Positions 9,792 to 50,613 of a stretch of DNA of 64,000 nt are shown here, piece by piece. The stretch is taken from assembly GCA_022750195.1 (NCBI GenBank), contig JAKIWE010000006.1, forward strand, positions 3,295-67,294, given 5' to 3'. The position numbers and the translations under genes are program-made. Each line of letters opens with the position of its first letter. The first letter of the stretch is position 1. The stretch comes from Thermoplasmata archaeon (GTDB taxonomy: Archaea; Thermoplasmatota; Thermoplasmata; Lutacidiplasmatales; UBA184). The notes beneath the pieces are model-generated. The model was not told the DNA's origin and made no database searches. It saw only the letters and a list, made by a program, of their open reading frames with translations.

Positions 9792-10133
9792 TCACTCCCC
9801 CAGGTTGTGGACGACGGCCCGGTAGGCGATGGCGGTACCGGCGGTCGAGGAGGGTCGGGCGACGCGGACGAGCCGGTTGGAGAGGTTCTCCTGCGCTTCG
9901 CGCGCCTTCGTGAAGTTCGGGTCGGTCCGGAGCCCGGGGTCGGTCACGAGGATCTTCGGGAGCCGCTCGACGAGCGTCTGCAGGTCGGCCAGGACCTGCT
10001 GGCTCTCGGCGTCGGAGAGGAGCGTGTGGGGCGGGACCAGGTGGTGGGCGACGAACGGGCGGGGCGGCTCCGGCGGGGCCGCGGCCGCCGCCTTCTTCGT
10101 CCGTTTGCGCGCGGAGCTCTTTGCGGGGGTCAT
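9792..10133 (-). CDS. rpoH: DNA-directed RNA polymerase subunit H (Rpo5)
   Basis: HHLVPPHTLL, LPKILVTDP, RPSSTAGTAIAYRAV. Start placed at ATG 10133 because the longer ORF overlaps a tRNA gene. Confidence 0.92.
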   Translation of the reverse strand: MTPAKSSARKRTKKAAAAAPPEPPRPFVAHHLVPPHTLLSDAESQQVLADLQTLVERLPKILVTDPGLRTDPNFTKAREAQENLSNRLVRVARPSSTAGTAIAYRAVVHNLGE

Positions 10134-10157: not shown

Positions 10158-10300
10158 CGGGCCCGGGGGGATATCCGGCGGGGCGTCCCAGCGACGGGAC
10201 GGCCTCGCGTTCGAACCCCCGACCAACTGGTTAAAAGCCAGATGCTCTTTGTAGGGCCGCCGCCGTGAGACGCCGGCCTACCTACCTGAGCTACGGGCCC
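10158..10300 (-). tRNA. tRNA-Lys(UUU) with two non-canonical introns (20/21: 10249-10279; 59/60: 10172-10209)
   Basis: Acceptor stem GGGCCCG/CGGGCCC plus G73; D stem GCTC/GAGC; anticodon arm TCTGG-CTTTTAA-CCAGT; T stem GGGGG/CCCCC. Removing two BHB-bounded inserts gives a standard cloverleaf. Confidence 0.93.
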
Positions 10301-10359: not shown

Positions 10360-10674
10360 TCACTTCTGGCTCTCCAGGTCGGAGATGATCGACCAGATCG
10401 CGGTGCGACCGTGCGTCGGAAGGTTAGGATCGTTCGCAAGGTCGTCGAGCACGTACACCGCGCTCGCGATCCGCACGTCGAGGGCGACGCGGTTCTTGCC
10501 GAGCTCGTCGCGCGCGCTCTGAGCGCCGCGACGAATGTTCCGAGGGACCGACGAGTCCTCCGCGAGCTCGCCCAGCGATTCGACGATCCGTGCGAGCATC
10601 GCCGGAACCGCCGACTCCGCGGGCGCCGGGGGCGTCCCGTCGACCGGGCCGTTCGAGACGGAGGCTCCGGTCAT
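10360..10674 (-). CDS. UPF0147 family protein
   Basis: DSSVPRNIRR and LDDLANDPNLPTHGRTAIWSIISDLE signatures. Confidence 0.9.
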   Translation of the reverse strand: MTGASVSNGPVDGTPPAPAESAVPAMLARIVESLGELAEDSSVPRNIRRGAQSARDELGKNRVALDVRIASAVYVLDDLANDPNLPTHGRTAIWSIISDLESQK

Positions 10675-50206: not shown

Positions 50207-50356
50207 CGAGCTCCCGAGCGAGCGTAGGAGTTAACACGTTCTCAGCGAAGCTGAAACACCCTGCCACCACGGAGTCGTGTCGACGCGCGGAGCGTCGGCC
50301 AAACGGTCCCCATCCTAGAACTCACTCCCGTGCGCAGAGCCGCGCGAGGGGAGAGG

Positions 50357-50440
50357 CGCTGAGGGGGAGATTTGAACTCCCGTGGCGTTGCCGCCACCGG
50401 TTTTCAAGACCGGCGCCTTCCCGAGCTAGGCTACCTCAGC
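50357..50440 (-). tRNA. tRNA-Ser(UGA), intron-less
   Basis: GCTGAGG/CCTCAGC plus G73, anticodon arm CCGGT-CTTGAAA-ACCGG, long variable arm TGGCG-GCAA-CGCCA, T loop TTCAAAT. Confidence 0.95.
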
Positions 50441-50511: not shown

Positions 50512-50613
50512 TGCAGGTGCCGGGAGTTCCGCGGCGGCCGCGGGGCGGTCGACCGGTTCGAACCCGGGTGATCAGCTTGGAGGGCTGATATCCTACCGCT
50601 AGATTACACCTGC
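50512..50613 (-). tRNA. tRNA-Gly(UCC) with a 31-nt intron at 59/60 (50526-50556)
   Basis: GCAGGTG/CACCTGC plus A73, D stem ATCT/GGAT, anticodon arm TCAGC-CCTCCAA-GCTGA, T stem CCGGG/CCCGG with a BHB-bounded insert in the T loop. Confidence 0.88.

Follow-up and report, generated by a model that had tools for sequence, protein, structure and literature searches.

The window analysed here, a 64,000-nucleotide stretch of contig JAKIWE010000006.1 from the genome of a soil Thermoplasmata archaeon (assembly GCA_022750195.1), contains a tRNA-Lys(UUU) gene that is split into three exons by two introns, one in the D loop between tRNA positions 20 and 21 and the other in the T loop between positions 59 and 60. 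With a probability of roughly 0.9, this is a functional gene from which both introns are spliced by protein enzymes, the splicing endonuclease EndA and the ligase RtcB. The gene lies on the reverse strand, as do all features of the locus described below, and occupies positions 10158–10300, its 143 nt running from base 1 to the discriminator G73 with no encoded CCA. Exon 1 (10280–10300, 21 nt) provides tRNA positions 1–20, comprising the 5′ strands of the acceptor and D stems and the D loop as far as U20, and is followed by intron 1 (10249–10279, 31 nt). Exon 2 (10210–10248, 39 nt) provides positions 21–59, that is, the 3′ strand of the D stem, the anticodon arm, the variable loop, the 5′ strand of the T stem, and the T loop as far as A59. 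Intron 2 (10172–10209, 38 nt) separates it from exon 3 (10158–10171, 14 nt), which supplies positions 60–73 (U60, the 3′ strands of the T and acceptor stems, and G73). In the standard numbering, intron 1 is flanked by U20 and A21 and intron 2 by A59 and U60.

When the exons were joined in silico by coordinate, the resulting 74-nt sequence was identified by ARAGORN as tRNA-Lys(ttt) with a complete cloverleaf, in which a U·U opposition at 27:43 was the sole irregularity. The anticodon loop, CUUUUAA, is uninterrupted, and the intron at 37/38 is absent. An earlier reading of this DNA from its letters alone (the original prediction) had proposed just such a three-exon gene, and its coordinates were found to be exact. 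When each bulge in the two splice motifs is cut after its second base, a canonical tRNA is restored that matches intronless orthologues. The D-loop junction is present in orthologues that have the T-loop intron only, and the T-loop junction is present in those that have the D-loop intron only as well as in Thermoplasma and Cuniculiplasma. ARAGORN returned no gene from the unspliced 221-nt stretch, and over the whole window it called only a tRNA-Ser at 50355–50440, leaving the Lys gene uncalled. At the gathering score, Rfam gave two tRNA matches in the window, neither of them at the Lys locus.

Unconstrained minimum free energy (MFE) folding of the 143-nt precursor yielded the acceptor, D, anticodon, and T stems together with a hairpin on each intron. 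The MFE was −76.6 kcal/mol, compared with −63.9 ± 4.2 kcal/mol for shuffled sequences (z = −3.04), 2 of 200 of which folded equally well. The T-loop intron forms a strict bulge-helix-bulge (BHB) motif of the hBHBh′ type, with a 4-bp central helix, two 3-nt bulges, and a helix beyond each, in which GGGGG-TTCG-AAC-GCG pairs with CGC-CGGA-TAT-CCCCC. The outer helix is the 5-bp T stem. The central helix is formed by UUCG (U54, U55, C56, and G57; 10212–10215) and CGGA in the intron (10174–10177), and the inner helix, GCG/CGC, is accompanied by a distal stem; the bulges are AAC (A58, A59, C) and UAU (U, A, U60). The BHB scan scored this intron at 4/4 for the central helix, 3 for the inner helix, and 5 for the outer helix. 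Its geometry is that of the canonical 37/38 intron, transferred to a different loop of 7 nt with a 5-bp closing stem.

In the D-loop intron, the 4 bp of the central helix, GUAG/CUAC, are formed between tRNA positions 16–18 (10282–10285) and the intron (10251–10254); the inner helix, of 5 bp, is GGCCG/CGGCC, and the bulges are GUA and AAA. Its 5′ splice site lies in a proper bulge (G19, U20, A) between the central and inner helices, and its 3′ site (A, A, A21) lies in a 2 × 3 internal loop opposite the unpaired residues A14 and G15. Because A14 and G15 keep the D stem, which is the outer helix, apart from the central helix, the motif is relaxed and does not have the strict hBHBh′ geometry. It fits the relaxed class termed HBh′/BHL in the accessible part of the review PMC6379350. 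A strict T-loop BHB and a relaxed D-loop motif had both been described in the original prediction, and both descriptions are borne out by the MFE fold and by covariation across 35 genes.

The locus might instead be a pseudogene in decay or resemble a tRNA only by chance, with AAA codons read by another tRNA, and the failure of ARAGORN and Rfam to call it is in keeping with such a view. Comparison with related genomes argues against it. A protein scan was performed with RpoH (RNA polymerase subunit H), which is encoded directly downstream of the tRNA gene at 9792–10133 (PF01191 at 9795–10133, 53.3 bits). It returned 52 loci, of which 34 (L033–L066) are titled Thermoplasmata archaeon, UBA184, UBA61, or Ca. 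Lutacidiplasma silvani. In all 34 of these Thermoplasmata loci, a tRNA-Lys(UUU) gene is located upstream of rpoH and carries both introns at the same sites; both introns were likewise present in 20 of 20 same-genus loci, one of which (L004) comes from an unpublished genome and is not the sole basis of any conclusion. Nine loci from other families of the class were more varied, with both introns in four, the T-loop intron only in two, and no Lys gene near rpoH in three, but the linkage of tRNA-Lys(UUU) to rpoH is conserved and extends to these other families. The titles given above, which include “Thermoplasmata archaeon” metagenome-assembled genomes (MAGs), are also those of the nearest named relatives of the contig and support the Thermoplasmata-like origin that had been proposed for it.

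An alignment of the window gene with the 34 loci (35 sequences, 37 pairs) was compared with 500 shuffles. Pairing was maintained in 97.3% of cells over the 35 genes, against 93.3 ± 0.4% in the shuffles, and double-sided changes occurred at 11 of the 37 pairs, against 6.1 in the shuffles; neither value was reached by any of the 500. When the partners were slid by 1–3 columns, only 36–58% of cells paired. In the D-loop intron, double changes were observed at three of the four central-helix pairs and three of the five inner-helix pairs; in the T-loop intron, they were observed at two of the three inner-helix pairs. In the T-loop central helix, 97.9% of cells pair, and two pairs alternate only between U-A and U-G, a limit imposed by the fixed exon strand. 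Mean pairwise identity over the 35 genes was 0.94, 0.96, and 1.00 for exons 1, 2, and 3, respectively, and 0.66 and 0.58 for introns 1 and 2. The changes are compensatory, in that intron sequence drifts and pairing is maintained. When all loci were combined, 88 distinct genes bearing a D-loop intron were obtained, in which the central helix occurs in 18 variants and is paired at 4/4 positions in 62 genes and at 3/4 positions in 26; the intron is 31 nt long in 63 of the 88. Exons that are 94–100% identical beside introns that drift yet keep their pairing, in a gene found at every one of the 34 and 20 syntenic loci, are not what would be expected of a pseudogene.

Genes for tRNA-Lys(UUU) were also sought, with one genome per species, by a pattern representing the anticodon and T arms, which yielded 80 loci from at least 119 stretches. 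Both introns were present in 31 of these loci, the T-loop intron only in 12, the D-loop intron only in 6, and neither in 31. Among the loci listed, both introns occur in UBA184-like Thermoplasmata MAGs, Methanomassiliicoccus and Methanomassiliicoccales MAGs, and the halophilic Thermoplasmata Ca. Saliniplasma and Ca. Natronoplasma; in the Methanomassiliicoccus and Methanomassiliicoccales loci (L086, L091, L100, L115, L143, and L149) they lie at the same sites. Neither intron was present, again among the loci listed, in Thermoplasma, Cuniculiplasma, Poseidoniales, a DHVE2 MAG, or haloarchaea, nor in two Asgard MAGs (Promethearchaeota and Hodarchaeota) and a few bacteria matched by the pattern. 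Since both introns are found in several orders, the structure is old and widespread in part of Thermoplasmatota and is not a quirk of one contig; its recurrence in 31 of the 80 loci, in named genomes, is a further point against a pseudogene. The existence of both D-only and T-only groups implies separate histories for the two introns. The D-loop intron alone was seen in some Thermoplasmatota or unclassified archaeal MAGs (L105, L107, L110, L130, L153, L163, and L068), and D-only introns are longer, at 32–41 nt in six loci.

Linkage of tRNA-Lys to rpoH is very widespread and reaches more distant archaea. In Methanobacteriota, Euryarchaeota MAGs, and Woesearchaeota (L067, L069, L071, L070, and L073), the tRNA-Lys(UUU) gene upstream of rpoH has an anticodon-loop intron instead, which ARAGORN reports as i(39,14–21) and, in L073, as i(35,32). 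In a Methanosarcinales MAG (L077, approximately 870–960), the gene upstream of rpoH resembles tRNA-Lys(UUU) but contains ∼22 extra D-loop bases after GG; this insert has no obvious BHB, and ARAGORN makes no call.

The genome to which the window belongs is 2.45 Mb in size and 95.65% complete. No second tRNA-Lys(UUU) was found in it by ARAGORN, by Rfam RF00005, or by the scans of sequences spliced in silico, and the locus holds the only such gene in the assembly. With introns allowed, ARAGORN made 80 calls over the whole genome, in which Lys appeared only as Lys(ctt); many of these calls are false, with “introns” of 500–2800 nt. RF00005 gave 45 matches at E ≤ 10, none of them at the Lys(UUU) locus. 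An intact copy elsewhere in the genome, which together with a lack of spliced product would have pointed to a pseudogene in the original prediction, was thus not encountered. At 95.65% completeness another copy could be unassembled, but taken with the conservation and distribution described above, the lack of any other Lys(UUU) gene in the assembly makes a pseudogene or chance look-alike highly improbable.

Interrupted tRNAs were also sought throughout the genome. A scan for BHB-like candidates (916,389 in total) was followed by splicing in silico and by ARAGORN on the products, and then by a scan for interrupted T loops with filters. From sequence, 17 tRNA genes are predicted to have introns at off positions, 14 in the T loop and 5 in the D loop, two genes having both, in agreement with the expanded intron repertoire that had been suggested for this lineage. 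T-loop introns at 59/60 passed all filters in 11 genes (Lys UUU, Gly UCC, Gln CUG, Glu CUC, Ser GCU, Ser CGA, His GUG, Ala GGC, Arg UCU, Arg UCG, and Asn GUU), and three more are predicted in Asp GUC, Ser GGA, and Leu UAG. D-loop inserts are predicted in Lys UUU, Arg GCG, Pro UGG, a CAU tRNA at C3:98692–98795, and Leu UAG. The predicted genes are located on genome contigs C3, C11, C47, and C52. Of the 33 Rfam matches over the cut-off, four cover just the 5′ parts of genes in this predicted set, and ARAGORN or Rfam mis-called several of the set as intact tRNAs that were short or low in score (Gln CUG, 28.2 bits; Glu CUC, 23.9; Ser CGA, 22.5; Asp GUC, 18.2). A 92-nt “Lys ctt” at C3:39854–40007, with an acceptor stem of 6/7, passed the filters but is probably false and is kept outside the tally. 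Seven ARAGORN loci that were folded proved not to be tRNA-like (C11:236003, C44:65188, C11:341505, C52:117623, C11:1136218, C11:391049, and C47:96482).

A search for pairs of BHB motifs (499,549 pairs) gave 58 ARAGORN hits, among which Lys was the one convincing two-intron case; tRNA-Leu(UAG) was missed. The latter gene (C11:135791–135935, forward strand, 145 nt) lies ∼30 nt downstream of tRNA-Gln(CUG) and has a 32-nt T-loop intron as well as ∼27 extra D-loop bases, making it a second predicted two-intron gene, with D-loop boundaries that are ambiguous in that 153 different cuts give a valid Leu. A Leu(UAA) gene was not found in the genome with a simple anticodon-arm pattern and may be interrupted differently or unassembled. 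Within the window, tRNA-Gly(UCC) (50512–50613, reverse strand; C3:53806–53907) has a 31-nt strict-BHB intron at 59/60 and stands beside the tRNA-Ser at 50355–50440, whose anticodon is UGA. Rfam covers only the 5′ part of this Gly gene (50544–50613, 30.6 bits), and its anticodon loop, CCUCCAA, has C at position 33 in place of the usual U.

A six-frame search of the genome revealed one EndA gene, a single open frame that PF01974 matches twice (80.8 and 48.8 bits). The protein has 353 residues, contains PF02778 and PF01974 twice each, and aligns over residues 28–335 with the α′2 EndA of A. fulgidus (1R0V). Consistent with the α′2 type, it is one chain of two tandem repeats with the catalytic triad in the C-terminal repeat only. 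Residues 6–174 of that repeat align with residues 3–171 of the narrow-specificity M. jannaschii α subunit, 169 residues to 169, with only a 1-residue gap and a 2-residue gap. The Tyr, His, and Lys residues align with chain positions 107, 117, and 148 of 1A79, which we take to be the catalytic residues Y115, H125, and K156; in the N-terminal repeat, Leu can be read from the sequence at the expected Tyr position. The genome also encodes RtcB (PF01139, 581.7 bits), such that both enzymes of the proposed pathway are present.

EndA has no extra residues at the site of the crenarchaea-specific loop (CSL) and the ARMAN-type-specific loop (ASL), the inserts that mark broad-specificity enzymes and carry a conserved Lys in the N-terminal portion of the catalytic unit. 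Before the shared LSL strand, 3P1Y (A. fulgidus EndA with a grafted CSL) is ∼10 residues longer and the P. aerophilum α subunit (2ZYZ_B) ∼13 residues longer, whereas the present EndA is not. An ε2 organization (αN, α, βC) was not found, there being two repeats only, and the ARMAN-2 EndA (4FZ2) matches just residues 215–338. The difference from a Thermoplasma sp. EndA (289 residues) is a deletion in Thermoplasma and not an insert here. The 120 matches listed in a protein search with EndA were all close relatives, 348–354 residues long. The suggestion that the enzyme might be unusual is not upheld by these comparisons, which reveal a single ordinary α′2 EndA with a catalytic repeat colinear with that of M. 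jannaschii and no CSL/ASL insert. In a comparison of six genomes only, the three with a Lys T-loop intron (this genome, a Methanomassiliicoccus MAG, and JdFR-43) keep a Pfam-recognizable catalytic-type domain in the N-terminal repeat of EndA, and the three others do not.

Several observations weigh against the interpretation that EndA and RtcB remove both introns. No register of the D-loop motif gives a strict BHB, and the outermost pair of its central helix is unpaired in 17 of the 35 aligned genes and mismatched in 26 of the 88 distinct genes. An alternative register, in which the 5′ cut falls one base later and the 3′ cut one base earlier, removes 29 nt and also gives an ARAGORN-valid tRNA, of 76 nt. 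In the accessible parts of PMC6379350 and PMC5829648, the α′2 enzymes are narrow and only the loop-bearing (αβ)2 and ε2 enzymes remove relaxed motifs efficiently, and the EndA of this genome is without such a loop. A search for sequencing runs containing the locus listed 20, with small shares of 0.07–0.16 and no RNA run among them. In contigs from four runs, one labelled transcriptomic but probably DNA, relatives of the gene are unspliced and no joint across either intron was observed, which speaks neither for nor against splicing.

The T-loop intron could be an ordinary EndA substrate and the D-loop insert could be handled differently, by cutting in the other register to leave an 11-nt D loop, by a helper RNA or protein, or by another nuclease. 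Such an arrangement would accommodate the lack of an adjacent outer helix, the second valid cloverleaf, and the absence from EndA of the loops that are tied to relaxed-motif cleavage in the available part of PMC5829648, as well as the presence in the MFE fold of a 5-bp helix, GUAGG/CCUAC, which indicates that the D-loop helix is able to slip by one. The 20/21 register is preferred because the 9-nt D loop that results from it is exactly that of intronless orthologues, and it is retained because, as expected of intron bases, there is free variation both in the base that follows U20 and in the two that precede A21. Over the 88 genes, the first intron base is A in 39, T in 36, and C in 8, plus others, and the two preceding exon bases are nearly fixed. 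Only one EndA gene was found in the genome, and the loop-less EndA of M. kandleri is reported, in the portion of PMC6379350 that was available, to have weak activity on an HBh′ intron within a full pre-tRNA. Separate handling of the D-loop insert is judged unlikely on these grounds, and removal of both introns by EndA, at 20/21 and 59/60, is the preferred reading.

If both introns are removed in this way, tRNA-Lys(UUU) would be transcribed as a 143-nt precursor consisting of the tRNA body and two extra hairpins, each of which would place its splice sites four base pairs apart in a BHB. A homodimer of the two-repeat α′ chain of EndA would cut after the second base of each bulge, and the RtcB ligase would join the three exons to give a 74-nt tRNA with the usual D and T loops. 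We infer that cutting and joining are performed by these two enzymes. Because the T-loop geometry copies that of the 37/38 intron, any archaeal EndA should accept the T-loop site. Strict T-loop introns need no special enzyme, and the relaxed D-loop introns are the part that fits poorly. It is a matter of speculation that the folded tRNA core, with its U8-A14 and G15-C48 tertiary pairs, might substitute for the outer helix that the D-loop site lacks. Also tentative, and on balance doubtful, is the broader proposal that in a large euryarchaeal clade, comprising Lutacidiplasmatales, Methanomassiliicoccales, and their allies, a loop-less α′2 EndA routinely cuts relaxed D-loop motifs by means of a determinant other than the CSL or ASL, such as recognition of that folded core.

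The tRNA gene lies between rpoH and a gene of the UPF0147 family (10360–10674; PF03685, 96.2 bits), its upstream neighbor, and the position between these two genes that had been assigned to it is confirmed by the Pfam matches. In RpoH, the Rpb5 C-terminal domain is preceded by an N-terminal extension of ∼28 residues in which Lys, Ala, and Pro are abundant; the match to Pfam begins at residue 29. A promoter and terminator scan of the locus was dropped: it gave 0 sigma-70-like sites, under a model irrelevant to archaea, and its two terminator-like matches on the forward strand coincided with the anticodon arm of the tRNA and with a GC hairpin in rpoH.

Comparable tRNA genes are known from other archaea. 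ARMAN-2 also has BHB introns outside the anticodon loop, including at 59/60, two-intron genes, and both strict and relaxed motifs (PMC3239211). Its EndA, however, is a three-unit ε2 enzyme with the broad-specificity ASL, in contrast to the two-repeat, loop-less α′2 enzyme here, and the second intron of the present gene lies in the D loop and not in the T loop. Thermoproteales likewise have two or three BHB introns per gene, in the D and T loops and at other sites, in many genes (Sugahara 2008, as cited in the available parts of PMC4090602 and PMC6379350). According to the accessible text of PMC4090602, Euryarchaeota with an α4 or α2 EndA have <10% intron-bearing tRNA genes, with a single BHB intron at the canonical site, and the present lineage, unlike Thermoproteales, falls in this few-intron group. 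Heavy interruption and relaxed motifs are tied, there and in the accessible parts of PMC6379350 and PMC5829648, to the loop-bearing (αβ)2 and ε2 forms of EndA. M. kandleri resembles the present case in having a relaxed motif and an EndA without the CSL/ASL loop, but it differs in EndA subunit architecture and has few such introns, compared with the five D-loop inserts predicted here.

A table row in the supplement to tRNAscan-SE 2.0 (PMC8450103) lists chr.trna28-LysTTT of Ca. Methanomassiliicoccus intestinalis Issoire-Mx1, with 139 nt and 83.1 bits, as “novel” relative to version 1.3. This entry, known by length and score from that row, represents the same isoacceptor as the gene described here and is probably its orthologue, given a length that fits two ∼30-nt introns and the presence of the gene in related MAGs. 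As far as the row goes, it bears on two earlier expectations. The novelty of the introns, which the original prediction had made conditional on the lack of prior reports across the lineage, is weakened by what is in part such a report. The statement that standard annotation misses the gene is correct for ARAGORN, for Rfam, and for version 1.3 of tRNAscan-SE but does not extend to tRNAscan-SE in its current archaeal mode. The main text of PMC8450103 contains 0 occurrences each of Thermoplasma and Methanomassiliicoccus, the Lutacidiplasmatales paper contains 0 occurrences of “intron,” and a 2026 preprint with a census of Asgard introns does not mention Thermoplasmata. Printed discussion of these introns in Thermoplasmata was not found in literature searches, whose reach excluded most subscription journals. 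The intron type itself is already known, and the Lys gene is a further example of it.

In the present genome, approximately one-third of the tRNA genes are overlooked or wrongly called by ARAGORN and the Rfam tRNA model, such that the tRNA counts used to grade such MAGs, and the completeness of their codon tables, are understated unless an intron-aware archaeal search is used. The 17 genes predicted here to have introns at off positions, two of them doubly interrupted, stand against the rule for Euryarchaeota given in the accessible part of PMC4090602, and the Lys structure spans several orders, with a cultured Methanomassiliicoccus appearing to carry the orthologous gene. Were the loop-less α′2 EndA indeed to cut relaxed D-loop motifs routinely in these archaea, this would contradict the rule that heavy interruption of tRNA genes is made possible by specific loop inserts.

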